Shown here in pieces: positions 20,991 to 63,399 of a DNA stretch of 64,000 bases. Location: IMG/VR virus record IMGVR_UViG_3300035117_000094, positions 39,589-103,588 of that record, one strand, 5' to 3'. The notes below the pieces were generated by a model. It had not been told where the DNA came from, searched no databases, and worked only from the letters and a program-made list of their open reading frames with translations. This stretch comes from a virus. Each line of letters opens with the position of its first letter. Positions within the stretch are counted from its first letter, which is position 1. The translations under genes were made by a program, and so were the position numbers.

Positions 20991-21063
20991 CGGCCGGTAG
21001 CTCAACGGCAGAGCGCCCCGGGAGGAACCGGGGAAGACCTAGGTTCGAGTCCTGGCCGGCCAC
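20991..21063 (+). ncRNA. tRNA-like RNA with non-canonical anticodon loop (GGAGGAAC)
   Basis: Acceptor CGGCCGG/CCGGCCA, D arm GCTC/GAGC, T arm CTAGG-TTCGAGT-CCTGG, no U33. Confidence 0.8.
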
Positions 21064-21138
21064 TGGTAGAATGGGCTTCATGTCAAAGCTGCACGCGCGC
21101 CCGTCACTCCAGTACCGGTACGAGCACTACGACCCCCG

Positions 21139-21163
21139 GGAATAACCGCAGCGTACCTGCGCT
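21139..21163 (+). promoter_or_regulatory. sigmaR/SigH-type promoter (GGAAT-N17-GCT)
   Basis: Directly precedes tRNA-like RNA at 21169. Confidence 0.55.
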
Positions 21164-21168
21164 GCACG

Positions 21169-21242
21169 CGAAGACCGGGCCGGGCGGAACTGGCTGCACC
21201 GGGTCAAGGGGAGTTCGAGCCTCCCTCCCGGGCCGGTCTTCG
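21169..21242 (+). ncRNA. degenerate tRNA-like RNA with long terminal stem and T-arm, no D arm
   Basis: CGAAGACCGG/CCGGTCTTCG stem; GGGAG-TTCGAGC-CTCCC. Confidence 0.55.
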
Positions 21243-21272
21243 TGCCAGCAGGTACCGGGGCAGCGAGGCCGG

Positions 21273-21298
21273 GGAATAAGCGCAACGTGCCTTGCGTT
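21273..21298 (+). promoter_or_regulatory. sigmaR/SigH-type promoter GGAAT-N18-GTT
   Basis: Directly precedes tRNA-like RNA at 21308. Confidence 0.75.
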
Positions 21299-21307
21299 AC
21301 ACGTGAA

Positions 21308-21412
21308 GACCGGGCCGGTAGCTCAGCGGATCAGAGCAGCAGTGGCCACTGTGGCGATTCGTCGTCATGACAAGAGAGCAGGACGCGGGTTCGAGTCCCG
21401 CCCGGCCCGGTC
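21308..21412 (+). ncRNA. tRNA-like RNA with 11-bp extended acceptor stem and rebuilt anticodon region
   Basis: GACCGGGCCGG/CCGGCCCGGTC; TA-GCTC..GAGC; GCGGG-TTCGAGT-CCCGC. Confidence 0.8.
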
Positions 21413-23185
21413 CTAAGCGAACTTCCCTGGATACAGCATGCTTATGATGGACGCCAAGTCTGTTCTCGCGCTCTGGTAGGGCGTGATGGTGGCCGTCTGG
21501 GAGTTGTCGCTGAACTCGTACTCCCCTATTACGAACGAGATGGGGGCGAAGCCGACCTCGCCGCCGAAGGCGTAGTTGATGCCCAGCACGTCAGTGGTAT
21601 GGCCGCCCCAGTTGCAGCCGAGGTCCACGGGCACGCCGCCGTCGCTGACGAGCTGCCCCGGCTGGACGGTGAACGGCGCCGAGAAGTTAGCCCTGATGTA
21701 CTTGTTCAGGATGTTCTTCGCCACTGCCTGCGCGCCGCCCCGGGAGTAGACGCCGCCGTTGCTTATGTCGATGAAGTACTCCATGCGCCCGTGAAGCGCC
21801 ACGGACCCCGGCACGTCGGCGAAGGTGGTCCTGTAGGTAGCGGCCACGGCCTTCTTCGTGGCGGTGGCCACCACGTCAGGGGTTGCCTGGTAGTAGACGA
21901 CTATCGTGTTGTAGTCGCCTACGATCGAGCGCTGGACCGGGTTAGTGTTGATGATGTGGAGCTGGGGCGGCACGCGCGGCTCCACTGCCAGCCGGTCCAC
22001 GCGCTTCCACTTGTGCCCGACGAGTACCCGGGTCTCCAGCTTCTGCACCGGCCCGGCCTGGAGCGGGTTGCCGGAGAAGTCCTGCGGGAGCGCGACGATC
22101 TTCAGCTCCCACGGGCCGGGCGGGAACGAGCTTGCCGAAGCCGGGGGGACCAGCTCCCAGGTCAGGGAGCCGCCCGTGCACAGCAGGTTAAGGAAGTCCG
22201 TGACGGTCAGCGATCCCGGGTTCTGCACGGGGCCGAGGTAGATGCCGGGCGGGCTGCCGATGCCCCTGTTCACCCAGCGCAGGCCCCGGGCGATGGCGAG
22301 GTCCACGGGCGCGTCGGCGGTCCAGCCCGACGACCCCTTAGTCGGCCCTGCCCCCGGCTGCCACCAGGCCGCGAAGTTAGTGCCGTACGTGCCGACGCCG
22401 TTGGCGGTGAGCGTCCAGCCCGTCGAGGCGGGCACAGGCTCGGTGAGGATGCCCTCCCAGATGCACGAGCCGCCCTTGTGCACGGTAACGACCCGGCCGG
22501 GGTTCATGGCGTCCGTGCGGAAGTTCGGCTCAACCTGGAGCGTGGCGGTGAGCTGGTCCGGGCCGCCTGGCAGCGAGTACGTGTAGTTGAGGTCGGCGAC
22601 GTGCCCTATGCGCCCCAGCCAGCGCGGGCTGTACGGCTGCGGGACGGTGATGATACCGGACTGCCCCGCCGATATCAGCTCGCCGTGCGCCGGCGGCGGC
22701 GCGAAGTACACCTCCCAGGACGCGGGGGACTCCTGCTGCACGGCGATCACGGTGCAGAGCTGCGGGTCCTGGAGGAGGTACGGCGCCGGCTGGCCGGCCG
22801 TCTCGCGCGTGATCGTGAACGGGTAGACCGAGAACAGGTCGGGAGCCTCGTTCAGCCCCTGGTAAGCGGGGGCGCCCGGCTCTACGTTATCCCCGGCGAA
22901 GACGGGCGGGTTCGGGAACGCGGAGTACGTGCTCGCGGGGTTGACCTTCCAGAGCTGGAACTTCTCCCCGGCCGACACGGGCGGCGTGTGCTGCCCCTCG
23001 ACGGACGCCCACTGGCTGGTGCTGACCGTGTACCAGCCGTAGCGCGTGCCGTCCGGCCCCGTGCCCGCCCCGGCGCTTGCCGGGAGGTCGGTAGTGGAGC
23101 CTGCCTCCACGACGGGGAAGGCGCGCTGGGGCAGCGGCGGCGCCCACGTGACTACCTGGCCCGCGTTCCCCTTCTCGAATGCCAT
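21413..23185 (-). CDS. minor tail protein (baseplate hub/Tal-like)
   Basis: Distal tail module; YSLPGGPDQL, IWEGILTEP. Confidence 0.65.
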   Translation of the reverse strand: MAFEKGNAGQVVTWAPPLPQRAFPVVEAGSTTDLPASAGAGTGPDGTRYGWYTVSTSQWASVEGQHTPPVSAGEKFQLWKVNPASTYSAFPNPPVFAGDNVEPGAPAYQGLNEAPDLFSVYPFTITRETAGQPAPYLLQDPQLCTVIAVQQESPASWEVYFAPPPAHGELISAGQSGIITVPQPYSPRWLGRIGHVADLNYTYSLPGGPDQLTATLQVEPNFRTDAMNPGRVVTVHKGGSCIWEGILTEPVPASTGWTLTANGVGTYGTNFAAWWQPGAGPTKGSSGWTADAPVDLAIARGLRWVNRGIGSPPGIYLGPVQNPGSLTVTDFLNLLCTGGSLTWELVPPASASSFPPGPWELKIVALPQDFSGNPLQAGPVQKLETRVLVGHKWKRVDRLAVEPRVPPQLHIINTNPVQRSIVGDYNTIVVYYQATPDVVATATKKAVAATYRTTFADVPGSVALHGRMEYFIDISNGGVYSRGGAQAVAKNILNKYIRANFSAPFTVQPGQLVSDGGVPVDLGCNWGGHTTDVLGINYAFGGEVGFAPISFVIGEYEFSDNSQTATITPYQSARTDLASIISMLYPGKFA

Positions 23186-23193
23186 GACGACTC

Positions 23194-26142
23194 CTAGGTG
23201 AGGTTCAGCGGGATGTCAGCGTCAAACACCACGGCTCCCGTGCCAGTGGTCGCGTTGATGATGCTGATGTTGCCCGAGGTGTCGATCCGGCCGAACGCCG
23301 CCTGAGTGTAGCCCGTGCTCGTGTGGAAGGTCACGCCGAAGTCCACGCCGGTTGCCGACGTAGGCCAGTAGTTGCTGTCCGGCAGCGTGTAGAAGGTGGT
23401 GCCCGTCATGGCGCCCGAGCTGATGATGCCCCTGACGATCAGGTGGTTGCCCTCGGCGTTCATCCGGTACTGGAACGCGGGAGACTGCTGCGTCCAGCCG
23501 TTGAGGAGGCTGACGGGCTTGTGCCAGGTTTCCGGCTTGGCCGGGGTGGCGCCCGGCTGGAACGGCGTGATGGTGCCCGTGAAGCCCTGCGCGAACTTGT
23601 TCCCGCCCGGGTCCGTCACCGCGAACGCCTCGACGGCGGCCACGGCGACGCCGGCCGGGTTCACGTAGGTGACGTACAGGCCGCCGGGGGCACCGGGGGC
23701 AGCGTAGTCCGGCGGCGGGCTGCCCGCCGCGAGCGCGGAGTACGTGAGCGTCAGGAACGGGGCGACGGAGCTGCCGTCTGGCGCGGCGGACCCCGGCCCG
23801 TAGACCTCGCAGTTGAACGCCTGGGCCGTGGGCTGGCCGTACGCCTCGAAGGTAGGGGACGCCCCCGGCCCGAGGATGATGGCCCCGGCGCGGTCCGGGT
23901 AGTTCAGCCCGATGAGGGAGTCGTAGAAGCCCGTCTGGGTAAGGTCCATGGTCGCCGAGGCCGCCCCGGCCGGGATCACGAGCTGCCCGAGGCTCTGCTG
24001 GATGGTGCTGCCCGTGTAGCTGCCGGGCAGGACCGTGTCGAAGGAGTAGCTGACTTCGAGGATCACGGGGGCGGGATTCAGCGGGTTGGCGTTGAACACC
24101 GTCAGCGATACCTGCGTCACGTAATTGCTGACGTCGAAGAAGGTGAGGCTAGGGTCCGGGGTGAAGCCCAGCAGCGTGTACAGCGACGGGTCCAGCACGA
24201 GCATGCTGTTCTTCGCGCCGGTAGCGTAGTCGTTCGGCCCGGCGCCCGTGAACAGCAGCGAGTTAGTGCCCTGCTGGCCCGGGTTGTAGAGCGCCCCGGA
24301 GGCCGTGCCCCCGTTCGCGTCGGTGCCGTTGTAAGACGCCGCGCTGGTGAACCCGAACGTGGCCGCGCCGCCCGCCCCGGGGCTGGGAGTGCTGCCGCAG
24401 CCGCCGCCTCCGCCTGCCGTCGCGGCGAAGCTGGTGGCATTGTCCGTGGCGCTGTTAGAGCCTGCGGCGCCCGCGCTGCCGCCCGTAGTCCACTGCGCGA
24501 TGCTCGCCCCCACGGCGTGAGGCGTGCCCCCCGCGCCGCCCGTGGCCCCGCTGGAGGACGCGCCGTTGCCGCCGGCCCCGCCCGAGCCGCCGCTCGCCCC
24601 GCCGCCCGCCCCGCCCTGCGCGGGAACCGCGCCGAACGCCTCCGCGACGCCCGTGGCGTTCAGCGCGTCAGTGCCGAACCAGACATTGGACAGGTAGCCG
24701 AAGTAGCCGGCGACGTGCGGGCCGTCCGGGCTGGCGCCGATGGCGACGTCGTGGCCGGAGGCCGGGATCACGCTGATGCTCGCGCTGCCCGAGGCGACGA
24801 GGGAGCCGTTGATGTACAGGGCCATGGCCCCGGCGTGGAAGGTGGCCACGACGTGGTTCCACGCGCCCGCGTTCAGGAGGCCCTGAGCGGAGGTGACGTG
24901 GCTGTTGGAGGCGTCGCCCACCTTGAACTCGGCTACCCAGGACGGGGCGCTGGCGGTGCCCTTGTTGATCAGGCCGAGGGCGAAGCCCGTGATGTTCCCG
25001 CTGCCAGAGTAAGCTTTGCCCCGGGCGTTAGCGGCGATCGTCCCCCACGAGCCGGGGGCCGTGTCGCTGAACACGCCGCCCGCCTGAGGGCTTTGCGCGA
25101 TCCACGCCGAGATAGTGCACGCCCCGACGTTAGCCAGCCCGATGGGGGGCAGCGTTATCACCGCCGTGGTAGTGGTGAGCGACGCCACGGGGATCGTGCC
25201 GTTGTCGCCCTTGGCCGTGGCGTTGGTGACCGCGCTTCCGGCAGCCGAGGTGAACGTGGGCACCTGCACGGGCGCCGGGTTACTGCGAGTGTAGAAGGAC
25301 CCGCTGCCCGCCAGGTAGTCGATGGCGGCGTCTAGGCCGGACCCGGAGAAGTCGCTGAGGACGGTATTGCCCGAGTTGAGGGGGATAACGTCGCACATCA
25401 TGTACTGGGCCGCCGGCTGGAAGGTGGCGGCCCCGTTAGCCCACAGGGCGGGGTTGCTGCTGAGGGCGGCCGGGTCGTCGGAACCGATCCCGGACACGAC
25501 GGTCCCCCCGTTGCCGCCGTTGCAGTGCACGGTGTTGGCGCTGCCGGTACCGCCCCGGCCGCCCTCGCCCGTGGCGACCGCGTCGCCGGCTATCCCGCCG
25601 TGGGCGGTGACGCCGCCGGGAAGGCCGACTCCGAGAAGGTCGAAGATGGTAGGGCCGGCGCTGACCCCGGGCGTTACGGCCCCGGCTACGGCGCTGCCCC
25701 CGGAGCTGACGTCGCTGACTACCCAGACGTAGGACTTGCCCGGCTTCACGGCGTAGGAAGGCTCCGCAGCGTACTCGCCGGCGCCGCCGCCCCCGCCGCC
25801 CGTCGTCGTGCTGCCGCCCCCGCCGCCCGCGCCGCCGCCGAAGCACTCTACCTGGACCTGGTAGTCCGACCCGTCGCCGTTGGCGTCAGGGGCCACCCAC
25901 ACGCCCAGCAGCGGGAACGCGGGCACCGACTGGTTGTCCCCGGTGCCGCCGAGCAGGACGTTTCCTGTCCCGGACACGTTCGTGCCCCAGGTCACGGCGG
26001 TTGGCAGCGGCTGGTAGGCGGTGACGGGCGACAGGCTGGTGGTCAGCGTGGGCACGAGGGCCTGGACCCTTGCCGCGAGGGACTGCGCCATCGCGAGGGC
26101 CGTGGTCCTGGTCAGCCGGGGGCTGGGTGCTGAGCTTGCCAT
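23194..26142 (-). CDS. Gly-rich tail fibre/receptor-binding protein with LamG (ConA-like) domain
   Basis: TISAW...WNHVVATF...LYING; GGGGGAGEYAAEP repeats. Confidence 0.75.
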   Translation of the reverse strand: MASSAPSPRLTRTTALAMAQSLAARVQALVPTLTTSLSPVTAYQPLPTAVTWGTNVSGTGNVLLGGTGDNQSVPAFPLLGVWVAPDANGDGSDYQVQVECFGGGAGGGGGSTTTGGGGGGAGEYAAEPSYAVKPGKSYVWVVSDVSSGGSAVAGAVTPGVSAGPTIFDLLGVGLPGGVTAHGGIAGDAVATGEGGRGGTGSANTVHCNGGNGGTVVSGIGSDDPAALSSNPALWANGAATFQPAAQYMMCDVIPLNSGNTVLSDFSGSGLDAAIDYLAGSGSFYTRSNPAPVQVPTFTSAAGSAVTNATAKGDNGTIPVASLTTTTAVITLPPIGLANVGACTISAWIAQSPQAGGVFSDTAPGSWGTIAANARGKAYSGSGNITGFALGLINKGTASAPSWVAEFKVGDASNSHVTSAQGLLNAGAWNHVVATFHAGAMALYINGSLVASGSASISVIPASGHDVAIGASPDGPHVAGYFGYLSNVWFGTDALNATGVAEAFGAVPAQGGAGGGASGGSGGAGGNGASSSGATGGAGGTPHAVGASIAQWTTGGSAGAAGSNSATDNATSFAATAGGGGGCGSTPSPGAGGAATFGFTSAASYNGTDANGGTASGALYNPGQQGTNSLLFTGAGPNDYATGAKNSMLVLDPSLYTLLGFTPDPSLTFFDVSNYVTQVSLTVFNANPLNPAPVILEVSYSFDTVLPGSYTGSTIQQSLGQLVIPAGAASATMDLTQTGFYDSLIGLNYPDRAGAIILGPGASPTFEAYGQPTAQAFNCEVYGPGSAAPDGSSVAPFLTLTYSALAAGSPPPDYAAPGAPGGLYVTYVNPAGVAVAAVEAFAVTDPGGNKFAQGFTGTITPFQPGATPAKPETWHKPVSLLNGWTQQSPAFQYRMNAEGNHLIVRGIISSGAMTGTTFYTLPDSNYWPTSATGVDFGVTFHTSTGYTQAAFGRIDTSGNISIINATTGTGAVVFDADIPLNLT

Positions 26143-29100
26143 TTACTGTGTCCTGTCCAGGTACCACCTGGGCGCGTAGCGCACCCCTATGTTGGGCGCT
26201 CCGGCCGGGGAGTAGGCCAGCAGGAGGTTGTCCCCTGGCATGATGTAGAGGGGGCCGCCTGACGGCATCGCGTACTCCAGCACGCTCACCTGGCGCTGCC
26301 GCCCGCCCGTGGTCGCCCCGACGAAGCCCATGGCACGGTCGGCGGGAGGCTCGTCAACGTAGTAGCTGACGTACTGGCCGTAGCCGGGCGTGCCGGGGGC
26401 GATGTTGATCAGGACCGTCTGGCCCCGGGTGTCGAGGAACAGCACGTCCTGGAACGAGTCGCCCTGGTCAGAGTCAGAAATCGAAACCGTGAAGTAGGAC
26501 TGGTCGTTGTGCGCGGCGTAGTCCTTCAGCGGCAGGGTCACCTCGCCGAGGTTGACGATGCCGTTGACCACGTCGATCGCGGGGGTGACTGCCCGGCTGG
26601 CCTGCACGGAGTAGCGAGGGCCGCCCGGGTACTCGTACTGGTTGATGCTCACGGTCAGCGTCCGCACGCTGCCTGCGGTGGCCGCGTTCCAGGCGTAGGC
26701 GGCGGCCAGCACCGTGTACGTGCCGTCGAACTCCGCGTTCAGGTAGGGAACCTGCGACGGGACGGCTATCGTGTACTCGGTGTTGTTCGGGATGTCGGTC
26801 ACGGGGATCGGCACCAGCGGCGAGAAGTTCGGCGGTGCCGTCTCGCCCGGCCGGTGCAGGATGAGCGTGTTGAACGGCGTGAGCGGCGGCTGCCACGTGA
26901 TGCGGATAAGCCCCTGGCCGCCCGCCCCGCCGTTGAACGTGCTCGTGCTGAACACCGACGAGTAGGCACCGCCGCCCCCGCCGCCTGGCAGGGCGCCGTT
27001 GCCGCCCGGGGCGCTGGCTGCCTGCGCCCCGTTGCCGCCGTGCGCGCCGCCGGCGTAACCGGGAGCGCCGAGGCTGCTCATCGCGGGGTAGCCCGTGCCG
27101 CTCGCCCCGCCCGCCGCGCCGCCTCCGTTGCCGAGCGGGGCCTGGGTGAAGCCGACCATCGACAGCGCCCAGTTAACGGCGGACGGGTACGCGCCCGTTA
27201 CCGACAGCGCCTGGTTGTCCGTGCCCTGGGCGAGGAACAGGTCCGTGGACAGGTTCGCCTGGGCGTTGTCGAAGTCCACGTAGTTCCACGGCGCCCCGGG
27301 CCGGCTGCCCGCAGGGGTGAGGTGGACGCCCGCGCTTGGCAGGAAGTTCGAGGCCATGGCCATGATCTGGTCGTTAGCCGCGAAAGGCTGGTAGCTTCCC
27401 GAGACAGCGGTGCCGGTGCCGGTTACCGAGGTGACGAGCGCGCTGTCCAGCCCGGTGGCGTTCGGCAGCCAGTAAACGTCGTACATGTACTGCGGGCTGG
27501 CCGACGCGCCTCCCCAGTGCACCGTGCCGTTCGACCCCTGCGGCAGGGCCGCCGTCACGGGCGCGGTGAAGATCCACTGGTGCGCGTTGAACCCGGCCGT
27601 CTGGACGTTAGAGCGCTGGGCGTAGGCGTTCCCGGACACGTCCACTATCCCGGTCGGCGCCGCGCTCAGGGAGATGCCCATCACGGCGATCGTCCCGTTA
27701 GCCGAGATGGCGCCGCCGTTGGCCCAGTTCGTCGAGGCCCCGGGGGTGGTGCCGTTAACGCGGGCCAGCTTGACGGCGGTCGCGTCCTGCGCGGCGGCCA
27801 CGAGCGGGACGCACAGCAGTGACCAGTTCGAGGACGCGGACATCCCGCAGGAGAACGCGTCGCCGGCTGCCCCCTGGAGCGCCGTGCCGCCCCCCTGGTT
27901 AAGGGCGACGAATGCCTGGATGATCCCGGCGGAGTCCGTCGCGCTGCTGGTGGCGTTCGGGGCGAACCACATCGTGTTGTTGTTCGACGGCTGGCCGCCG
28001 GACGGCGTGGCCCCGGCGTCGTTCGACATGACGATCAGCTCGTACTGCATGCTCTGCTGGTCGCCGGCGCCGAAGGTGCCCGTGATGGTGCTGCCCGTGC
28101 CGGCGTTCGACGACTGGTTGGGCGCGCTCACGCCCGTGGACAGGGTCGGCGAGGTGTACCAGAGGTAGCCGTACGCCTGCGCCGTGCCGGACGTTATCGT
28201 GATCGTCGTGGCGGTGGTGACGGGGTTCGCTATGTTCGCGGTGAAAGCGTACGTGGTGATGCCGTTGTGCGCTGACCCGCCGGCTTGCTGGGCCGCTAGC
28301 GTGTACAGGTTCCCGGACGTGTCAGTCACGGTCAGGTCACTGACGGCGGCCCTCGACCGCACGAGCACCACCGATACGCCCTGGGCGCAGGAGGCCGCAG
28401 CCGTGCTGCTCGTGCCGCTGGCCGTGACGTAAGTGCCGCTGCCGCCGAGCTGGAAGGCGAAGGCCGTGCTCGTCCGGGCGGTGAACGGCGAGGTGTACCA
28501 GGAACCCTGCGGCCCGGAGGTGTACAGGCCGCCGATGCCTCCCGGGCTGTGCACCGTGTTGGAGCTGCCGGCGCCGCCCGTGGTAGCGGCCTCGCTGTTA
28601 GCGGCGGCCGAGGCCCCGCCGTGCGCCGTGACGGTCGTGCCCGTGGTCCCGGCTGAGCCGAAGGAGGTAGTCCCCCCGTTGACGGCTGCGCCGTTGCTCA
28701 CGGAGTAGCTGAGCTGGACCTCGCCGTCAGCTCCGTCAGCGCCGAGGTAGTTGCCGTCAGGAACGAGCGGGCCGCCCGCCGGCTGGATCGTCCGGAAGAT
28801 CACGGGGCCGGAGTAGCCTCCGCCGCCGCCGCCGCCCGGCGCCAGCCCCCTGGCCGGGAAGCCCGGTGCCGGCGACCCGTTGCCGCCGTTGCCGCCTGAG
28901 CTGTTGCCCTCAGGTGACCCGGTGCCGCCCGTGCCGCCGCCGGCCAGCCGGCCGAACGCCGACGTGGCGGGCGAGTCGCCGCCGTTGCCGCCGGCCCCGG
29001 CGTTACCGCCTGCCCCGCCGCCGCCGCCGCCGCCCGTTCCCGGGGACGCGCCGCCGTTGCCGCCGTTGTGGTGAACCGGGGCGGTCGAGCCGGAGCCGCC

Positions 29101-32079: not shown

Positions 32080-32125
32080 GCGCGGGCCTCCGTGAGTTGG
32101 CGTTCAGGGCCAGCTTACCGGGAAG

Positions 32126-32151
32126 GGAATAGCCAGGCGATAGCCCGCGCT
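32126..32151 (+). promoter_or_regulatory. sigmaR/SigH-type promoter antisense to tape measure
   Basis: GGAAT-N18-GCT in intergenic gap. Confidence 0.45.
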
Positions 32152-32160
32152 ATAGCAGGG

Positions 32161-39502: not shown

Positions 39503-39857
39503 GGACTACCTCCGTCAGGTGCTGCTTCAGTTCCTCGTGGCGCGTGTCAACGTGCGTGACCATGCTGGCCTTCAGCTCCTCGTGGCGCGCGTCCACGTGG
39601 CCGGCCGTCAGCTCCGTGGTGAAGAAGCTGAACACGGAGGCCAGCAGCGGCACCACGGTTACCATCATAGCGGCGATAAGCCAGTACCCCGCCGGGTTGT
39701 CCGGCAGCACGTCACAGCCGACCGTGGTCGAGGTGCCCAGGGCGCAGTACAGGCCCTTCCACACGGCGATGTGCTCAGACGCGCTGTACGCCAGCCCGAA
39801 CGCGACGTTCAGGGTCACGGTGGCGATCAGCACCCTGAATGCCCGCTTGTGCTGCAC
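39420..39857 (-). CDS. KcsA-like 2-TM ion channel (Ion_trans_2) with altered filter TTVGCD
   Basis: TM1, GLYCALGTSTTVGCDVLP...G, TM2; starts 2 nt after upstream stop. Confidence 0.75.
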   Translation of the reverse strand: MQHKRAFRVLIATVTLNVAFGLAYSASEHIAVWKGLYCALGTSTTVGCDVLPDNPAGYWLIAAMMVTVVPLLASVFSFFTTELTAGHVDARHEELKASMVTHVDTRHEELKQHLTEVVHGKPEGSADGAGGADSGQRVPGHPGGG

Positions 39858-49078: not shown

Positions 49079-49088
49079 GCTGGCCGTC

Positions 49089-50357: not shown

Positions 50358-50360
50358 GGC

Positions 50361-51336: not shown

Positions 51337-51361
51337 GCCTGGTCCTTTCAGGGGAAAGCAG

Positions 51362-51395: not shown

Positions 51396-51413
51396 CGCAG
51401 CCAGCCGTGGGGC

Positions 51414-52787: not shown

Positions 52788-52818
52788 GGTGGATCCTTTC
52801 GATGAGGCATCTCGTCGC

Positions 52819-52853
52819 CGGCTCCATGCGAGCGGGTGCCCGCCGGCCTCGGC
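52819..52853 (-). promoter_or_regulatory. conserved structured leader motif (capsid copy)
   Basis: GCCGAGGCCGGCG-N15-GGAGCCG. Confidence 0.6.
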
Positions 52854-52931
52854 AGTCTTACACTCTCAAGAGTAGGAACAGCGTCACGCTAGGCATAGAG
52901 CCGCAATAAAGTTACCTGACCGAGATATGAG

Positions 52932-52966
52932 GAAGCCCCGTGACGGTGCTCCCGTCACGGGGCTTC
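52932..52966 (-). terminator. hairpin after protease gene
   Basis: GAAGCCCCGTGACGG...CCGTCACGGGGCTTC. Confidence 0.75.
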
Positions 52967-52973
52967 CAGTGTC

Positions 52974-54494: not shown

Positions 54495-54562
54495 TCCTTC
54501 CGTCAGCCTACGGCTATCGCTTTCCAGCGTAGGAACTAGTTACCCGTCGTGCAATGCCCTGC

Positions 54563-56200: not shown

Positions 56201-56261
56201 GGTACTACCGCCCTCGGCCTTGACACTCGGTACACGTCAAGTACCAGGATACGGGCGCCGC

Positions 56262-56522
56262 CTACTGCTGGCGAGGAGGTTCGGGCTGCTTCCGGCGCCG
56301 CTGCTCCGGGGGGATCTTCGCGCCGTTCCAGTAACCGACCCGGAATGCCACGGCGCAGAACGCCCCGAGGAACCAGGCACGGCCGATTACCCAGCCGAGC
56401 AGGCTGAAGACGCCGAGGAACGCGGCCAGCAGCATCTCGGCCGGCGAGGCGCTGGCGGCCAGGGCCGCTGCCTCGTCGCGAACGTCAGCGAGGGTCGGCC
56501 GCTCGGCCGTCATGGTGCTCAT
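56262..56522 (-). CDS. small membrane protein
   Basis: Hydrophobic core upstream of portal. Confidence 0.6.
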   Translation of the reverse strand: MSTMTAERPTLADVRDEAAALAASASPAEMLLAAFLGVFSLLGWVIGRAWFLGAFCAVAFRVGYWNGAKIPPEQRRRKQPEPPRQQ

Positions 56523-56635
56523 GGTCCTGAGCGTACCACGCTACTTAGAGCAGGAGTGCCCGTCCTTCACCCAGTAGACCTCGCCGCACTTCCCGCAGGC
56601 CGCCGTCATCTGCCACAGCGCGCGTGCCAGGGCGC

Positions 56636-57037
56636 TCACCGGTCACCGTCCGGGTCCTCGCGCAGCAGGTGCCGCACTCCGAGGACCCCGGCCTCGTCAA
56701 GCCGGTCCCAGTACGCGGTAGCCTCGCCCCTCGTAGGCCACGGGCCAGCTACCGCCCGCTCGTGCGGGAACTCCGGCAGCCCGTGCGTCGTCATGACGTA
56801 CCAGTCGCCCTTCTCGTCCTCCGGCGCCGGGTCCGGCTTCGCGGCCTCGGTCAGGGCCTTGCTCGCCGCCCACCGGTCCGTCATGGACTGTAGCTGGCTG
56901 ACCATCTCCGGCGTGAAGGACCCGAAGGGCGCGTCCGCCTGGTTCCAGTGGTCGCCCGGGTTGGCCTTGAACACGACGTGGACGTAGTCCTTGTGCGAGT
57001 AGCCCTTGAACAGCTCAGTCTCGAAGTCAGCGCTCAC
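56636..57037 (-). CDS. hypothetical protein
   Basis: GGAGG SD. Confidence 0.6.
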   Translation of the reverse strand: MSADFETELFKGYSHKDYVHVVFKANPGDHWNQADAPFGSFTPEMVSQLQSMTDRWAASKALTEAAKPDPAPEDEKGDWYVMTTHGLPEFPHERAVAGPWPTRGEATAYWDRLDEAGVLGVRHLLREDPDGDR

Positions 57038-57357
57038 CAGTCGTTCCTCCAGTCACTCTTCCAGTTGCTTCGCCAGTTGTAGCCGTAGTGCTCCCTTGTC
57101 ACCAGGCATCCGCACCACAGCGGGCTTCCGTACTTGCGCAGCTCCAGCCGGCCGCGCGCTTCCCCGCCCTCGGGCAGGTAATGCAGCGGGCACATGTGCG
57201 AGAGCCGGACCTCGCCGTCGTGCATAATCCGCAGGGTTTCCCGCCATGCCCATTCCCGGTGAACCCGGTGCCTCACGACGAGGTAGCGGGCTGCCTGCCA
57301 GCACTCGCGGGCCAGGTACAGCGGAGCGTAGGGCGTAGTCAGCGCGGCGAGGTCCAT
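57034..57357 (-). CDS. hypothetical protein
   Basis: TGATG overlap. Confidence 0.45.
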   Translation of the reverse strand: MDLAALTTPYAPLYLARECWQAARYLVVRHRVHREWAWRETLRIMHDGEVRLSHMCPLHYLPEGGEARGRLELRKYGSPLWCGCLVTREHYGYNWRSNWKSDWRNDW

Positions 57358-57707
57358 CAGGAGAAATCGTAGTACGCGAACGTGCAGCCCTCGTCGTCGA
57401 ACGGCCATTCTGCGCCAGTCCAGTAACGTCGCTGCACTGACGTGAGCGGAAAGTGGCTTTTCTTGTCACGCCGGGCCTCGACGTACTCCAGGAACTCGTC
57501 TGCGGAGTACGGCGCCCCGTACTCGTCAGTGATCAGGAAGAAGCCGTCTAGCTGGCGCAGCCACGACTGGATGCCCGTGATGCCACGATCGCGGTCCGCC
57601 TGGAACAGGAACTGCCAGCCCATCGAGGACAGCCCGAGGTGCACCTTCTCCTCGGTGACCGTGACGAGGTCCGTGCTCCTGCGGTACCCGTAGAAGTTGG
57701 CGCCCAT
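57357..57707 (-). CDS. hypothetical phage protein
   Basis: HLGLSSMGWQF...DEYG. Confidence 0.65.
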   Translation of the reverse strand: MGANFYGYRRSTDLVTVTEEKVHLGLSSMGWQFLFQADRDRGITGIQSWLRQLDGFFLITDEYGAPYSADEFLEYVEARRDKKSHFPLTSVQRRYWTGAEWPFDDEGCTFAYYDFS

Positions 57708-57913
57708 CAGAGGCCATCTCCCGGGTACCGCGCCGGCTCGGGCAGGATCTCGCCCTTCTCGCCGTAGTTCCAGGGGTCGTGCAGCTTCAGCGCGACGGAA
57801 TGCCGGAGGGCGCCGGAGTCTCCCTCGTCGTAACGTCGCCGGGCGTCAGCGGCGAGCGCGCCGACGATGGCTAGCTGCTTGTCCGTCAGGGCGTACCCCT
57901 GGTAATCCGTCAT
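57707..57913 (-). CDS. hypothetical protein
   Basis: GGAGG SD. Confidence 0.55.
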   Translation of the reverse strand: MTDYQGYALTDKQLAIVGALAADARRRYDEGDSGALRHSVALKLHDPWNYGEKGEILPEPARYPGDGL

Positions 57914-57922
57914 GCCTGCCTC

Positions 57923-59590
57923 CTACGCTACGGTCTTGCCGAGGTCATAGCCCCTGTGCCGCCTGTTGAGCACGTACGCCGCCAGGGTGCCGCTTGTCAC
58001 GGGCGTGATGTCCGACTCGCTGTCGCGCCGCGACCACGCCTTGCCGCCGTCACCGAGTACCCGGGTCTGCGCCCGGCCCATCGCGTGCCACAGGGTCGGG
58101 GCGCCCTCCTCGCCGAAGTGGGAGATCATCCCCGCCTTGACCTGCTGCATGAACCAGGCGAAGGCCGCCGCCTCTTCAGCGGCCCCGATCTCTATAAGCC
58201 GGTCGCCCCACTTTTTCTTCCCTTCCTGGATGATTCCCGCCGCCGGCCCGCTCTTGGGCATCGCGACGCCGATCGGGTGCCACTTCCGGTAGAGCCGGTC
58301 CAGCTCGTCCAGCACCCAGTCCGACCCGGAGCGGGAGTCGTCGCGGGGGATCTCGATGACGACGGGGTCCTTAACGCTGCGCGACCAGGCGGAGGAGATG
58401 GTGGCGCTCTTGCCGTCCTCGTCGATGTCGCAGGCGAAGGCGATCGGCTGGACGGGGAAGCCCGGGTTCGCTACGGTGAGGGACTTCCACTTCTCCTGGC
58501 TGATGACGGACCAGGCTTCCTCGTCGGCTGGCCACTCGCCGACGCCGTTCCGCTCGCGGTCGAACTCGCCCTCGGGCATCTTGTGCAGCTCGCGGCGGGT
58601 GAACGACGTCCGGATCCGGTAGCCGGTGCCCGGGTTGGACTTGGCCCAGGACCGGGGATCGTCACGGTCGTCGTGCTTAGCGCACGTGATGTAGTAGTTG
58701 GTGCGGCGCCCGTTAACCTCGTCGCGGGGGCAGTCATCGGTGTGGGGGCTGATGCTGTACTCGGCGCCGAACATCTCCGGGGCCTTGCGGAGCATGTCCT
58801 TGCGGGCCTTGGCCAGCTGGAACGAGTCCTTCAGGCCAGCGGACCCGGCGAGGATGGTCTGCGGGTTCGGCATGGCGGACATGGTGGGCATGCTGGCCCC
58901 GACCTGCTCGTCCGTCAGGATCATCGCCTCGTCGTAGATGAGGCAGTCAGCGCTGAACCCCCGGCCGCCGCTCGACCCCTGCCGGGCGTGGAAGTACAGG
59001 GTGCTGGCCACCCGGCGACGGATCTGCCGTCCCCCGGAGCCGAAGATCAGGGTCGGCTGGGCGAACAGCTCGATGGCCTCCTCGCCGTGCGACCCGGCGA
59101 TCCTCTTCACGCGGCGCCGGAGGGCCGGGTACTCGTTCAGCACCTTCTTCAGCCGGCGGAAGTGGTTGAGGGAGGTCTTGAACTGGTGACTAGTGTGAAT
59201 AAGCGTTTCCTCGCCGATCACGAACATGCCCGCCAGCTCGCGTACTTCGAGGATCGTACCCTTCCCGTTCTGGCGGGGTACTATAAGCAGGCAGTCAGGA
59301 GCGGCCCACGTGCCATCCGGCTTCACCGACAGGATGTTCGTGACGGACCACTTCTGCCACGGGTCCAGCTCGTAGCCGAAGCCCTCTGCCCAGGCAAGCG
59401 CGTCCACGGCCTGAGCCTCGCCGCAGCCAGTCTCGCGGCGCTTCTCGTTAGCCTCAATGAGGCACATGACGCAGTCTTCGGCCGGGAGCTTGTGCCGGTC
59501 CGGCTCGACGAAGAAACGGGGAACCTGGCTGCCGAACAGCGGGCCGTCGATCGTAGTGCCGTCCGGCAGCTCGATCAGCTCAGCCTTCAC
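57923..59590 (-). CDS. terL: terminase large subunit
   Basis: PRQNGKG Walker A, LIYDEA Walker B, FACDID nuclease. Confidence 0.95.
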   Translation of the reverse strand: MKAELIELPDGTTIDGPLFGSQVPRFFVEPDRHKLPAEDCVMCLIEANEKRRETGCGEAQAVDALAWAEGFGYELDPWQKWSVTNILSVKPDGTWAAPDCLLIVPRQNGKGTILEVRELAGMFVIGEETLIHTSHQFKTSLNHFRRLKKVLNEYPALRRRVKRIAGSHGEEAIELFAQPTLIFGSGGRQIRRRVASTLYFHARQGSSGGRGFSADCLIYDEAMILTDEQVGASMPTMSAMPNPQTILAGSAGLKDSFQLAKARKDMLRKAPEMFGAEYSISPHTDDCPRDEVNGRRTNYYITCAKHDDRDDPRSWAKSNPGTGYRIRTSFTRRELHKMPEGEFDRERNGVGEWPADEEAWSVISQEKWKSLTVANPGFPVQPIAFACDIDEDGKSATISSAWSRSVKDPVVIEIPRDDSRSGSDWVLDELDRLYRKWHPIGVAMPKSGPAAGIIQEGKKKWGDRLIEIGAAEEAAAFAWFMQQVKAGMISHFGEEGAPTLWHAMGRAQTRVLGDGGKAWSRRDSESDITPVTSGTLAAYVLNRRHRGYDLGKTVA

Positions 59591-59753
59591 GGGTGACCGC
59601 CGTGAGCCGCAGTTCCTGGATCCTGCGCACGGCGGCCCGCGCGAGGCCCCTGTAAGCATCCGGGAGCAGCGGCACGCCGCGCCTGTCGCACAGCCACAGG
59701 TTCTCGTCTATCAGCGCGCAGGCTACCGCCTCAACGACCTCGTCCGTTGTCAC
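59580..59753 (-). CDS. small leaderless hypothetical protein
   Basis: TAGAAT 6 nt before GTG; read by hand. Confidence 0.45.
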   Translation of the reverse strand: MTTDEVVEAVACALIDENLWLCDRRGVPLLPDAYRGLARAAVRRIQELRLTAVTREG

Positions 59754-59914
59754 GGAGCCATTCTACGAGCACGTACGGCTAGACCGCGTCGTCCAGCTCG
59801 AACAGCCCTAGCGGAACGTGGTAGACAGCGGTTACCGTACCCGCGTCATCGCGCAGCACCTTGTAGTAGGCATTGCCCGTCAGCAGCATCTCCAGGGCCT
59901 CAGCGCTCCCGTTG

Positions 59915-60241
59915 TCAGCCTGCATAGCGAGCGCCCTTGATGAGGTTGCACTCCCGGCACAGCAGCTGAAGGTTGGCCATCTCAGTCGGCCCGCCCCACG
60001 ACCAGGGTGTCACGTGATCGAAGTGAGCCTGACAGGGAACGGGGTGCCGGGTCCTGGTGACGCCGCGCCCGCAGTGCCTGCACCGGGCGCCGTCGCGACG
60101 GAAGACCAGGCGCTTCTGCTCGTCAGTGGCGAAGCGCTGCGGCAGGGCCGGAGGCGAGTCCGGGGTGATAACGCGCTCACGCGCCCTGCTGACGAGGCAG
60201 ACCAGGACGATGAGCACGATCACCGTGAGCACGGCACTCAC
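59915..60241 (-). CDS. HNH endonuclease with N-terminal hydrophobic helix
   Basis: RDGARCRHC...DHVTPWSWGG...NLQLLCRECNLIKG. Confidence 0.88.
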   Translation of the reverse strand: MSAVLTVIVLIVLVCLVSRARERVITPDSPPALPQRFATDEQKRLVFRRDGARCRHCGRGVTRTRHPVPCQAHFDHVTPWSWGGPTEMANLQLLCRECNLIKGARYAG

Positions 60242-60666
60242 CGGCCCCACAGCCCCGCGAACTTCCACAAGACGATCGCGACAGGCGTCATGCCGTGGCG
60301 GGTGCACCACGTGCCCGTCCTGTCGATCCGGCTGGTGACCGCGAGCCGGACGCGGATGCGCCGGGGCAGCGGCGTCAGGAGCACGGGAGGCTTCCCCGCG
60401 ACCTCACTGAGCGCCCTTGCCATGGCGTAGCCCAGGTCTTCCATGGTGCGCTGCGGAGGTTCGAACCGGAGCCGGATCTCCTGGCCTTCCCGGAGGTTCT
60501 TCTCGAACATGTCGTTGAGGCTGCCGGTAAGCGGAGCGGATTCCAGGCTGGCCAGGGCGCCCATCACGTCCTCGCCCGGCCGGGCGCCCGATCCGCGCAA
60601 TGACTCCGTCCTCATCCAGATGCCGAAGTCGCCCGCTTCCGCAGCGGCCTTCTCGTCTTCGTCCAC
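60238..60666 (-). CDS. hypothetical protein
   Basis: GGAGG SD, overlap. Confidence 0.55.
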   Translation of the reverse strand: MDEDEKAAAEAGDFGIWMRTESLRGSGARPGEDVMGALASLESAPLTGSLNDMFEKNLREGQEIRLRFEPPQRTMEDLGYAMARALSEVAGKPPVLLTPLPRRIRVRLAVTSRIDRTGTWCTRHGMTPVAIVLWKFAGLWGR

Positions 60667-60687
60667 GGCTACCTCCGGGGGATCGGG

Positions 60688-61035
60688 TTAGGCACCGGAA
60701 TGTTCCACTCCGGGCACTTCAGGGCCGCTGGCAGGAACCGGCTGAATACCCGGCACAGCCTCACGTGGCGCGGGGGCGCGCAGTGCGGGCGCAGCGGCCA
60801 GCGCTTGTACGCCGCTAGCAGCGTCTTCATGGTCATCGTCACCCTCCTGGAGTAGCCCGGTGAACGCACGCCAGGCTTGAGCCGGGTAGCGCACTCGCGG
60901 GCCGGCCGGGTTTACCGAGTCGCGCACCATGACGGCGCCCGTAGCGGGAGCCACTTCGACGCACGCGCCGTTGTGAATGCTCCGGCGCGACTTGCGCCAG
61001 CCGGCGTCCTTGCGGCGCGTGCTGCCCATGCTCAC
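60688..61035 (-). CDS. DUF397 domain protein
   Basis: WRKSRRS...GACVEVA...VRDS.NP.GP...AW.AF. Confidence 0.88.
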   Translation of the reverse strand: MSMGSTRRKDAGWRKSRRSIHNGACVEVAPATGAVMVRDSVNPAGPRVRYPAQAWRAFTGLLQEGDDDHEDAASGVQALAAAPALRAPAPREAVPGIQPVPASGPEVPGVEHSGA

Positions 61036-61038
61036 TGC

Positions 61039-61064
61039 AACCTCCGGGCTATCGGCTATATTCC
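61039..61064 (-). promoter_or_regulatory. sigmaR/SigH-type promoter GGAAT-N18-GTT
   Basis: Perfect consensus directly upstream of DUF397 gene. Confidence 0.7.
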
Positions 61065-61472
61065 GCTCTGCTCGCGCATGCGGCGCTCGCGGTCCTCGCG
61101 GGCCTTGGTGGTGGGGTCGTCAGCCTCCTGGGCGGGGAACAGGTCCCGGAGCTGCATGTACCCGAGGCGGATGTCCTTGGTGTAGAGGGTCATCTCGCGC
61201 GGCGGTACCTCGTCGGCGTCCACCTGCGCGGCCAGCTTCACCATGGACTGGGCGATGGCCGTCTTAGCCGCCTCGGGCGGCAGCGTGTCCAGGTCATCCT
61301 GAACGGCCTGCCCGAGCGGCCCGAGGATCACCGGCTCGTTCTCGGCGAGCAGGCCGCAGTCACCGCACAGGTAGACGCCGGCGGACTTGCGGAACACGTG
61401 GTCGCCGGAGTCGATCTTCTTCTTGCACCAGCGGCAGGAAGTCGCCCGGGCCACGTCCATCCAGTTGGCCAT
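61056..61472 (-). CDS. putative terminase small subunit with N-terminal Zn finger
   Basis: CRWC...CGDC then LAAQVD...RERR helical part; upstream of terL. Confidence 0.6.
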   Translation of the reverse strand: MANWMDVARATSCRWCKKKIDSGDHVFRKSAGVYLCGDCGLLAENEPVILGPLGQAVQDDLDTLPPEAAKTAIAQSMVKLAAQVDADEVPPREMTLYTKDIRLGYMQLRDLFPAQEADDPTTKAREDRERRMREQSGI

Positions 61473-61631
61473 GACCTAATGCTAGCCTGACGGCCATCAG
61501 GCTGTCAGTCCTCGTCGTCCTCAATGATCGTCTCGCCGGTCACGGTGACGACGTCGTGCGATCCCTCGCGGAAAACCCGGTCATCCTCCCCCAGCTTAAC
61601 CACCCTGGCCCCGGTACGACGGTTAACCGTC

Positions 61632-61862
61632 TCACGGTGAAGCTTCTCCTGGCGCACTACCGGGTGCTTGTTCCACATGGCCTGCTCCTTCTCGTTGCGC
61701 GGTCGCTCCCGCTCCTGGTACCTCTCGCCGGGCAGCCAGCAGCCGGTCGTGCTCTGCCCGCGCCCGGGCGCCCTCAGCGTGGTACGGCCCGTTGCCCCCG
61801 GTACCGAAGTACCCCCTGTAGTACTCGCTGCGCCGGTTACCGCTCTTGCCCGACGCGCTCAT
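61632..61862 (-). CDS. hypothetical protein
   Basis: Adjacent to upstream stop. Confidence 0.45.
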   Translation of the reverse strand: MSASGKSGNRRSEYYRGYFGTGGNGPYHAEGARARAEHDRLLAARREVPGAGATAQREGAGHVEQAPGSAPGEASP

Positions 61863-61863
61863 G

Positions 61864-62499
61864 TCAGAGCCTCGTCCGGGCTGGGCTGGCGACGGGGCCG
61901 CCGCTGAACGTCAGGGGGCCGCTCAGCACGTGCACGCTGTCGCCTGCGCGGACGAGTTCCAGGCCGACCGTCCCTGTTGTACCGGCGTCCACCATCTCAG
62001 CTACCTGCACGAACTCCGCCAGCGATGCTTCCTCGCCCGCCATGCGCAGGCTGAACGCGCCCGGGTTACCGAACTCCAAGCCGTGGACCACGTAGTCCTT
62101 CAGGGAGCCAATCGTCAGCGAGCCGTCTACCGCCTCCGTAAGGACGCGCGTGCCCCACGGGTCATCGTCGCCGGCCGGCACGTAGCGGACGGTCACCGTG
62201 ACTAGGTCGAGGCCGCGCTCCTCCGCGATAGCGGCTGTGGCCTCCGGGTCCGCGAGGATGGCCTCGGTCTCGGCCGCCGATTCGAGAACCCGGATCTCCT
62301 GCTGGAGGTAGAAGACCGCCTGCTTCAGGTCTTGCAGGTGACGGCCTTTCGCTGGCCGGCCGATGTACTTCAGCACGTTGAACAGGTAGGCGTTCCTGTG
62401 CAGGCCCCACGCCTCGGCCACCTTGATGACCTCGTACGGGTTGTCCTTGCCGCCGTAGTAGGGCGGGTGGTTCACCGGGTCGAACTCGCCGTTGCTCAT
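61864..62499 (-). CDS. DUF3310 domain protein with C-terminal extension
   Basis: DPVNHPPYY...NVLKYIGR...DLKQAVFYL. Confidence 0.85.
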   Translation of the reverse strand: MSNGEFDPVNHPPYYGGKDNPYEVIKVAEAWGLHRNAYLFNVLKYIGRPAKGRHLQDLKQAVFYLQQEIRVLESAAETEAILADPEATAAIAEERGLDLVTVTVRYVPAGDDDPWGTRVLTEAVDGSLTIGSLKDYVVHGLEFGNPGAFSLRMAGEEASLAEFVQVAEMVDAGTTGTVGLELVRAGDSVHVLSGPLTFSGGPVASPARTRL

Positions 62500-62538
62500 C
62501 GCGTCCTCCGGGTCGTCAGCTATCTGGTGCTGATCGTC

Positions 62539-62564
62539 AACTAGCTGACGGTGCTGTCTATTCC
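62539..62564 (-). promoter_or_regulatory. sigmaR/SigH-type promoter GGAAT-N18-GTT
   Basis: Perfect consensus upstream of DUF3310 gene. Confidence 0.7.
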
Positions 62565-62993
62565 GGGCGGGTCCGTATGCGCCCACCGCGCGTGCACCTC
62601 GGCTGCCCGGGCGGCGAGGCCCGGATCTGGCTCCTCGTTGCGGCCCGCCCCGGTGATGACGGCGATGTCGGCGCCGAGCAGGGCGGCAAGGACGTTCTCG
62701 GCGCCGTCCACGGCGATCTTCAGGCGCCGCCGCTCAGCGCGCAGGAGGGCATGCCCATTGCCGGCTACCCAGCCGCGAACGTGCATGACGTGCTCACGCA
62801 GGAGCCGGCGGCACTCGATCAGGTCCAGGTCCTGGCGGCGCTCCCGGAGCAGGGGCAGCAGCTCGTGCTTCCGCATGTCAGCTAGCGAGGCGGTCTCCGT
62901 CAGGATCACCCGGCCCGCAGGATCGTCAAGCCACCACTGGCTTACCTGGTAAGTCTTGCCGTACTGCCGGGGCCAGACCAGCCAGCGGATCAT
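62541..62993 (-). CDS. small P-loop protein (terminase-like Walker A)
   Basis: PRQYGKT; IAVDG. Confidence 0.6.
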   Translation of the reverse strand: MIRWLVWPRQYGKTYQVSQWWLDDPAGRVILTETASLADMRKHELLPLLRERRQDLDLIECRRLLREHVMHVRGWVAGNGHALLRAERRRLKIAVDGAENVLAALLGADIAVITGAGRNEEPDPGLAARAAEVHARWAHTDPPGIDSTVS

Positions 62994-63211
62994 GCCCGGC
63001 CGCCTGACCCGTGCTCGCGCCGGCGCTGGTCGGGCACGTTGTCCTGCACTTCCAGCGGCTCGACGTGGACGCCCTTGAAAGTCTTGCGGAGACGGCCGGC
63101 TTCCTCATCGGCGCTGCCCCGGGTGACGTGCGGGTTGACCAGCTCATCAGTCTCGACCCCGGTGCCGTTCTTGTCCCTGATGAACGTCCCGAAGATCTTC
63201 GGCTTCGCCAT
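62990..63211 (-). CDS. hypothetical protein
   Basis: GAGGAG SD. Confidence 0.55.
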   Translation of the reverse strand: MAKPKIFGTFIRDKNGTGVETDELVNPHVTRGSADEEAGRLRKTFKGVHVEPLEVQDNVPDQRRREHGSGGRA

Positions 63212-63242
63212 GTCGTGCTCCTCTCTCGGCGCCTGTCCTGCG

Positions 63243-63324
63243 TGGAGCTGCCGGGAGTCGAACCCGGGTGCGGTCCGGGCCTCCGACGTGCGGCTTTAAC
63301 CCGGCGACGAATCCGTCCAGCCCC
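63243..63324 (-). ncRNA. minimal tmRNA-like RNA (tRNA-like domain only)
   Basis: GGGGCTG/CAGCTCC-A with G3-U70, unpaired GGATTCG D-loop, CCGGG-TTCGACT-CCCGG. Confidence 0.8.
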
Positions 63325-63331
63325 CTGCTAC

Positions 63332-63399
63332 CATTGCCGCCCGGATTCGAACCGGTCCCCTCCGTGAGGGGCGTGCCATCCCTGATGCACCGGGCTGAT
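63332..63399 (-). ncRNA. degenerate tRNA-like element
   Basis: D stem GTGC/GCAC, CCCCTC-ACG-GAGGGG, CCGG-TTCGAAT-CCGG, poor acceptor stem. Confidence 0.55.

Follow-up and report, generated by a model that had tools for sequence, protein, structure and literature searches.

The DNA analyzed here, referred to throughout as the window, comprises the last 64 kb (64,000 nucleotides, nt) of a 103,588-base-pair (bp) IMG/VR virus contig of 103.6 kb (record IMGVR_UViG_3300035117_000094, positions 39,589 to 103,588). It contains five loci shaped like transfer RNA (tRNA), designated E1 through E5. The content of guanine plus cytosine (GC) in the window was 69%. Plus-strand genes extend to position 20984; the minus strand carries a long structural operon that reaches from 63211 to 21413. 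The convergent gap between these two gene blocks is filled by E1, E2, and E3; E5 and E4 are located upstream of the structural operon, ca. 600 nt from the contig end. The five loci and the two promoter-like motifs that accompany them are as follows (window coordinates).

20991..21063, plus strand: E1, a tRNA-shaped gene called "tRNA-???" with a four-base "anticodon" by ARAGORN; 43.1 bits with Rfam RF00005.
21139..21163, plus strand: promoter-like GGAAT-N17-GCT motif, upstream of E2.
21170..21241, plus strand: E2, delineated by its fold and by 75% identity to the E3 unit.
21273..21298, plus strand: promoter-like GGAAT-N18-GTT motif, upstream of E3.
21308..21412, plus strand: E3, with its tRNA body at 21312-21409; 46.7 bits in Rfam, homologues in loci L094 and L095.
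63243..63324, minus strand: E4, a transfer-messenger RNA (tmRNA) consisting of the tRNA-like domain only, i.e. a tag-less mini-tmRNA; 46.5 bits with Rfam RF00023 (E 4e-17).
63337..63393, minus strand: E5, a probable tRNA remnant in which only a T arm and a hairpin are found.

These loci were interpreted as three kinds of tRNA-derived gene housed in two tRNA slots: a mini-tmRNA, a group of non-decoding tRNA-like RNAs, and one eroded remnant. We hold this reading to be moderately probable. The loci had originally been predicted to constitute a single set of five anticodon-less tRNA mimics, and all five were recovered where that prediction had placed them, E1-E3 on the plus strand and E4 and E5 on the minus strand, with most of its descriptions found to be correct. 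Five hairpins of the T-arm type were counted in the window, compared to 0.77 in shuffled sequences, and four of the five were located at the named loci; the clusters of such hairpins are therefore not due to chance. A 7-nt anticodon loop with U33 and a readable triplet was absent from all of them: E1 has an 8-nt loop, E2 has no anticodon arm, the arm of E3 is capped by the 4-nt GGCC, E4 has no such loop, and that of E5 is 3 nt long. E1 and E3 scored above the gathering score of the Rfam tRNA model RF00005 (29 bits), and both have a cloverleaf body with a 7-bp acceptor stem, a D arm, and a T arm. E4 scored 22.8 bits with the same model, and neither E2 nor E5 was matched by it. The accompanying statement that no normal tRNA is present was correct inside the window but not for the genome as a whole, in which tRNA-Met, tRNA-Asn, and tRNA-Gln were detected outside the window at 50-64 bits.

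E4 was matched end to end by RF00023 (model positions 1-374), with 32 nt replacing the ca. 320 between the two P2 strands; its score is just below the gathering score of 47. E4 features a G3:U70 pair, A73 as the discriminator base, a D-loop analogue (GGAUUCG), a short capped P2 stem, a T arm, and paired 5' and 3' ends, which together make up the tRNA-like domain of a tmRNA; CCA is not encoded. The mRNA-like domain (resume codon, tag reading frame, and pseudoknots) is missing from the 32 nt between the P2 strands. A complete or permuted tmRNA was detected neither in the window nor, by ARAGORN, in the genome as a whole. The corresponding gene of Mycobacterium phage DS6A was located at JN698994 28478-28560 (L107:1501-1582; 43.2 bits) and could be aligned with E4, including the P2 stem and the inner AAAGCCGCACG-type hairpin. 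When viral contigs were scanned with a pattern, the E4 architecture was present in 5 contigs, then in 39 with a looser pattern, and 24 distinct mini-tmRNA sequences of 69-91 nt were collected from phages of 33-71% GC. The G3:U70 pair was present in all 26 sequences of an alignment made up of E4, the DS6A gene, and the 24 viral variants, and the T stem covaries in this alignment. In two relatives (L009 and L012), the mini-tmRNA closes an array of 26-29 tRNA genes, and in a third (L007) it follows an initiator-like tRNA-Met. E4 was thus assigned, with high confidence, as a tag-less mini-tmRNA of the DS6A type. A mini-tmRNA with a GGGGCCG acceptor was also observed at positions 10199-10278 of the tRNA array of a distant relative, G002 (L066).

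The tRNA-like-domain-only tmRNA of DS6A has been published (Mao et al. 2009, as cited in PMC4131195 and PMC11915505), and RNAs of its type are reported to inhibit the host tmRNA, perhaps through titration of SmpB (PMC4131195; also PMC11915505). The proposal that the phage uses RNA decoys fits these published statements as far as E4 is concerned. No SmpB gene was found in the phage genome, and E4 would therefore have to rely on the SmpB of the host. E4 keeps the alanine identity pair and what would be an SmpB-binding tRNA-like domain, without a message. During infection, it most likely competes with the host tmRNA for SmpB, and possibly also for AlaRS, EF-Tu, and stalled ribosomes; by analogy with the published family, this competition would damp trans-translation tagging.

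E5 was judged differently. It comprises a T arm of 4 bp (CCGG/TTCGAAT/CCGG) and a hairpin (CCCCUC-ACG-GAGGGG) with 6 bp in the stem and 3 nt in the loop. An acceptor stem could not be drawn for it, its fold was no better than those of shuffled sequences (z -0.42), and its best match in Rfam (14.9 bits) was to an unrelated family. The relative closest by terminase (L007, 68%) has a normal tRNA-Met(CAU) that stops one base short of its mini-tmRNA, and E5 occupies the position of this tRNA. The likeness of E5 to the tRNAs of relatives was slightly above that of its own shuffles (score of 62, compared to a background maximum of 54). Because it stands at the position of the L007 tRNA-Met and retains only a T arm, E5 is probably a remnant; with moderate confidence, we regard it as a decaying tRNA, what is left of the one that precedes the mini-tmRNA in the nearest relative.

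The convergent gap holds the other three elements. E1 begins 6 nt past the stop codon of the last plus-strand gene. It has intact D and T arms, a C1:A72 mismatch, and an 8-nt loop, GGAGGAAC, that lacks U33; in an alternative drawing, the stem has 6 bp and 6 nt remain in the loop. E2, for which Rfam gave no hit, features a 15-bp closing stem (GAAGACCGGGCCGGG and its 3' partner, with one G.G mismatch) around a 5-6-bp T arm (GGGAG/TTCGAGC/CTCCC). It has no D arm (17 nt are missing relative to E3), and the sequence inside it, CCGGGCGGAACTGGCT, is similar to CCGGGAGGAACCGGGG, the E1 anticodon arm. In E3, the acceptor stem is lengthened to 11 bp by pairing between leader and trailer, and the D and T arms are intact. 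Its 5-bp anticodon stem (GCAGT/ACTGT, capped by GGCC) is followed by a UUCG hairpin and then by a purine-rich tail, AGAGAGCAGGAC; the arm thus takes up 37 nt where the RF00005 model expects 13. E3 stops 1 nt short of the convergent gene's stop codon; this gene encodes a protein of 590 amino acids (aa). The E2 and E3 units are 75% identical over ca. 140 nt that include the promoter motif (GGGAATAA...G(C/T)T), the leader GAAGACCGGGCCGG, and the 3' strand and trailer; E1 and E3 have the acceptor sequence (GGCCGG) and the D arm in common. E1, E2, and E3 are evidently local paralogues, a single family from one tRNA-derived gene. Their T stems are fully paired yet different (CTAGG/CCTGG, GGGAG/CTCCC, and GCGGG/CCCGC, respectively), and E2 and E3, the tandem copies, differ at both bases of two T-stem pairs. 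Such paired but divergent stems are hard to reconcile with free decay after duplication.

The retained promoter motif also bears on expression. GGAAT-N17/18-GYT occurs 16 times in the window, compared to an expectation of 2.4, and no shuffled sequence reached 16; 11 of the 16 copies point in the same direction as the plus-strand genes of the block at 1-21300. The sites span 581-62564 (e.g. 12427, 13545, 18352, 21139, and 21273). The motif suggests a set of promoters for middle genes resembling those of the extracytoplasmic-function (ECF) factor SigH, and E2 and E3 would probably be transcribed from phage middle-type promoters of their own. Neither sigma-70 promoters nor U-tract terminators were found near the RNA loci. 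If transcription starts a few bases past the motif, a start position that we infer, the transcripts would begin at GAAGACC. The first base of GAAGACC is also the first base of the E2 closing stem, and the extended stem of E3 starts three bases further in, at GACC.

A second recurrent feature is a 6-8-nt loop containing GGAAC, carried on a 5-bp stem just 5' of a T arm, which was found in four places. One of these is in a sixth aberrant tRNA-like element, E6:

G000:C1:24901-24985, minus strand: E6, outside the window and ca. 14.6 kb before its start; 85 nt, called tRNA-Phe(GAA) by ARAGORN.

E6 was not detected by Rfam. It directly follows the normal tRNA-Gln and tRNA-Asn and has an acceptor mismatch, a poor D stem, a loop with G33, and a 13-nt variable region. 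The four loops are given below as 5' strand, loop, and 3' strand where these are divided.

E1: CCCCG / GGAGGAAC / CGGGG.
E2: GGCGGAAC.
E6: GGGGC / AGGAACA / GCCCC.
G002, a distant relative, in a single module of an unusual tRNA-like cluster: UCUUC / GGAACU / GAAGG.

The retention of this loop on differing stems speaks for a functional loop. It also weakens the premise that every anticodon arm is broken in a different way: E1, E2, and E6 share the GGAAC-containing loop. Within these three elements, GGAAC was also considered as a -35 element of the ECF type, a reading that was discarded, as the spacing to any -10-like motif was inconsistent.

Decoding by E1 or E3, either as a +1 frameshift suppressor with a four-base anticodon or after removal of an intron, was considered on account of the ARAGORN output (a four-base anticodon, AGGA, for E1; tRNA-Gln or tRNA-His with an insert for E3). 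The loop geometry speaks against both versions. Position 33 in the E1 loop is G, not U, and the loop can close to 6 nt. In E3, the anticodon stem is closed by 4 nt and the 32 extra nt lie 3' of the stem, so no excision restores a 7-nt loop. When genomes were searched with the E3 pattern, the only matches were in archaeal records, in stretches that read as unrelated, insert-bearing tRNAs. The intron-bearing and frameshift-suppressor readings were rejected on the geometry, and we assign a very low likelihood to decoding. A Y RNA reading was likewise rejected: the score was 14.6 bits against a threshold of 69, the order of the arms is normal rather than permuted, and no TROVE gene (PF05731) was found in the genome.

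Comparative evidence was sought at the slot occupied by E1-E3. The 590-aa protein encoded beside the slot has more than 130 homologues, and the region downstream of its gene, in the same orientation as E1-E3, was compared for 27 loci. The contents of the slot varied, for example:

L079: tRNA-Asn.
L084, L101, and L102: tRNA-Gly-Cys-Asn.
L099: tRNA-Gln-Asn.
L085, L090, L080, and L083: no RNA element.

In two further loci, L094 and L095, whose 590-aa proteins are ca. 58% identical to that of the window, a 107-nt element of the E3 type was located at the same slot; in L095, it directly follows a stop codon. In this element, extension brings the acceptor stem to 12 bp, the anticodon stem of 4 bp ends in a UGCA loop, and a long extra arm, a tail of sequence GAGAGAGACAG, and both the D and the T arm are present. 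Its compensatory differences from E3 comprise A-U to G-C in both the acceptor extension and the anticodon stem, G.U to U.G at 27:43 of the anticodon stem, and a change at acceptor pair 2:71. These changes suggest that the E3 architecture has been maintained in a second lineage. Broader searches added no further members. The T-arm side of the E3 pattern had no matches in viral contigs. The 5'-half pattern matched only normal tRNA-Thr, tRNA-Arg, and tRNA-Ile there, so the 5' half of E3 is generic. Comparison with the tRNAs of relatives gave no clear isoacceptor ancestry for E1, E3, or E5, and blastn of both regions against cultured phages returned nothing.

Other unusual tRNA-like sequences were observed in relatives. 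In a distant one, on the minus strand of L055:1380-1900 (IMGVR_UViG_3300021404_000006, ca. 71.2-71.7 kb), there are three tandem modules with the conserved motif GAGCCGGA-N3-5-AATCGGTTATC, each followed by a T arm, and one of them holds a tRNA 5' half that is 93% identical over 27 nt to that of E3. The modules had no match to an Rfam family, and the motif is absent from the genome of the window's phage. At L066:4651-4794 and L014:16592-16767 (minus strand), a tRNA 5' half (acceptor and D arm, TAGCTCAACGGCAGAGC, as in E1) leads into ca. 120-150 nt that do not read as tRNA, and a 3' half to match it is lacking; both cases are inside the tRNA arrays of relatives. The 27-gene tRNA array of G002 has further tRNA-like genes that were missed by ARAGORN (L066:9960-10027, 10107-10174, 4795-4865, and 7464-7538), which include 68-nt forms with a reduced D arm and an initiator-type tRNA-Met.

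The principal rival for E1-E3 is decay. It was formulated for all of the elements but E4, with E1, E2, E3, E5, and E6 taken as functionless tRNA leftovers at different stages of decay. Relatives by terminase have 26-29 normal tRNAs beside the mini-tmRNA, and relatives at the E1-E3 slot carry the normal tRNAs listed above or nothing. E5 has no acceptor stem, E2 has no D arm, and E6 has the acceptor mismatch and poor D stem already described. On the other hand, an enriched promoter motif is retained at both E2 and E3, the T and closing stems are fully paired despite the sequence differences between paralogues, L094 and L095 show the oddities of E3 again, with compensatory changes, and the GGAAC loop recurs on different stems. 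As an account of all five elements, decay was considered rather unlikely. Selection for tRNA shape without decoding, as had been proposed, is thus indicated by several signs for E1-E3 (the promoter motifs at E2 and E3, the compensatory stems, and the second-lineage homologue) but not for E5, which looks like a product of decay with no acceptor stem and no distinctive fold.

Several observations nonetheless weigh against the three-gene-kind, two-slot reading. L085 and L090, whose 590-aa proteins are the nearest among the compared loci (74% and 66% identity, respectively), have coding sequence at the slot; because these nearest relatives are without an RNA element there, E1-E3 must be dispensable. 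No homologue of E1 was found among the loci compared. The provisional E3 family consists of two independent lineages, with L094 and L095 near-identical to each other, which is too few for statistics. The Rfam tRNA scores of E1 and E3 (43-47 bits) are below those of the phage's normal tRNAs (50-64 bits), a point that also favors decay. Taken alone, the palindrome in the E3 loop has no significance (the window contains 31 palindromes of twelve nt, compared to 36 in shuffles), and its use as a dimerization signal was dropped as an explanation. Finally, the function ascribed to E4 is carried over from literature on a similar molecule in E. coli.

Taken together, the evidence is about evenly balanced between E1-E3 as a small family of probably expressed, non-decoding tRNA-shaped RNAs and E1-E3 as pseudogenes. 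In the former case, the three would no longer decode and would be kept for their acceptor and T-arm shape (plus the D arm in E1 and E3), probably as stable tRNA-shaped RNAs that bind some tRNA-recognizing factor. An unlikely extension of this idea is that E1, E2, E3, and E6 represent an undescribed class of phage-expressed non-decoding RNAs in which a conserved GGAAC-type loop or a purine-rich tail is mounted on a tRNA scaffold, and which titrate or redirect a host tRNA-binding factor as the mini-tmRNA may do with SmpB. Candidate targets would be a toxin that modifies acceptor ends, an enzyme involved in processing, or a factor associated with the ribosome. If this were true, the phage would carry several RNA decoys against different parts of the translation apparatus.

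A role in cis was also weighed, in which E1-E3 would act on the flanking mRNAs as terminators without U-tracts, as 3'-end protectors, or as RNase P processing signals. The three elements fill the convergent gap entirely, from 6 nt past one stop codon to 1 nt before the other, and no canonical terminator is present. Their GC-rich stems are very stable (-40 to -51 kcal/mol), and the L095 element is likewise placed directly after a stop codon. However, a terminator needs no promoter of its own, no D arm, and no canonical TTCGA T loop; tRNA-specific features have been retained in E1-E3, and relatives have no spacer at the junction. A cis role was therefore rated as quite improbable.

The original prediction went further in proposing that all five loci form a coordinated decoy system, which soaks up tRNA-targeting toxins or anti-phage effectors together with the phage RNA ligase and nucleotidyltransferase. 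The RNA-repair genes are present:

3117-3974: RlaP RNA-repair nucleotidyltransferase (Pfam, 1e-25).
12494-13183: RNA ligase (Pfam, 2e-16).

The reported inhibition of tmRNA by the family of E4 (PMC4131195) and the intact tRNA bodies of E1 and E3 would also suit such a system. Against it, 8-18 kb separate the RNA-repair genes from E1-E3, and the two are not linked in relatives; neither a toxin nor an effector nor a binding partner was identified, and E5 is not a credible tRNA mimic. Anticodon nucleases, which the prediction had cited, require the anticodon loop that is missing from these RNAs, which makes them poor decoys for such enzymes. The loci occupy two unrelated slots 42 kb apart that vary independently among relatives, and for this reason they are not one system. 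We found no evidence that the five loci work together, and the coordinated system was regarded as very improbable.

The large terminase is a 578-aa protein (57923-59659) with ca. 30% identity to terminases of Rhodococcus, Arthrobacter, and Mycobacterium phages, and it is evidently a distant relative of the actinophage enzymes. Pfam matches to an SNF2 helicase and a PLD-like protein were also recorded. A small open reading frame of ca. 56 aa (63421-63592, minus strand) ends ca. 25 nt ahead of the E5 region, such that E5 and E4 are situated behind a short leader gene near the end of the genome. The right end of the window (63590-64000) and the start of the L007 contig (1-330) have TCTCTCCCCGATT in common, 10-23 nt from the contig ends, as well as a TGCAC(G/A)TGCAA motif ca. 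120 nt in; these shared motifs suggest a common physical genome terminus or packaging site and not a random assembly break. In L085 (ca. 1610-2190, minus strand), the gene facing the 590-aa homologue encodes a DIDGT-type motif, as read from the translation, which would fit a protein like HAD or polynucleotide-kinase-phosphatase and would add another RNA-repair gene to this group of phages.

Phage tRNA genes are usually taken as a codon supply or as spare parts for anti-defense. In the window's phage, which has few working tRNAs, several non-decoding tRNA-shaped RNAs appear to have been retained, two of them behind their own copy of a promoter motif. A literature search returned no precedent for phage tRNA-like decoys. 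If E1-E3 are expressed and bound by a host factor, the RNA-decoy idea would extend from SmpB to other tRNA-recognizing proteins; if they are not, the locus would be a clear example of the decay of a phage tRNA slot. With E4, the evidence that uncultured phages commonly carry tag-less mini-tmRNAs continues to grow, although the DS6A example is the only one published, and interference with trans-translation would be a widespread phage strategy worth testing.

E1 and E3 resemble canonical tRNAs (RF00005 and the tRNA-Met, tRNA-Asn, and tRNA-Gln of this phage) in the lengths of the acceptor (7 bp), D stem (4 bp), and T stem (5 bp), in the GG of the D loop, and in the TTCGAGT sequence of the T loop. 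They differ in having no 7-nt anticodon loop or U33; E3 additionally has the 11-bp acceptor and the 32 extra nt, and E2 has no D arm. Species 1 (rnaC) and species 2 (rnaD) of phage T4 and the tRNA-like stable RNA of T5 are also phage-encoded, non-decoding RNAs that are located beside tRNA genes and have tRNA-like acceptor or T-arm features. Compared by description only, E1-E3 retain more of the cloverleaf than these RNAs do, and two of the three have promoter motifs of their own. YrlA (RF02553, associated with Ro60/Rsr) is a mimic of the tRNA elbow that lacks an anticodon and occurs in phages, as do the loci described here. YrlA is circularly permuted, has a sealed acceptor, and travels with a TROVE protein, in contrast to the normal order, sub-threshold score, and lack of a TROVE gene noted above. 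The closest counterpart of the ca. 82-nt E4 is the DS6A tmRNA. Both are phage-encoded, without a tag frame, and both have an acceptor with G3:U70 and A73, a D-loop analogue, a T arm, and a short P2 stem whose cap is a hairpin of the AAA(G/A)CCGCACG type. E4 differs in its origin from another, uncultured phage lineage, in its acceptor (GGGGCUG, compared to GGGGCCG in DS6A), and in its location ca. 600 nt from a contig end beside a probably decayed tRNA. The reduced tmRNA of jakobid mitochondria (Jacob et al. 2004, cited in PMC11915505; PMC3590771) has likewise been cut down to the tRNA-like domain, to which its sequence relationship with E4 is limited; it is, however, an organellar gene product that acts in rescue with imported SmpB and not a viral competitor.

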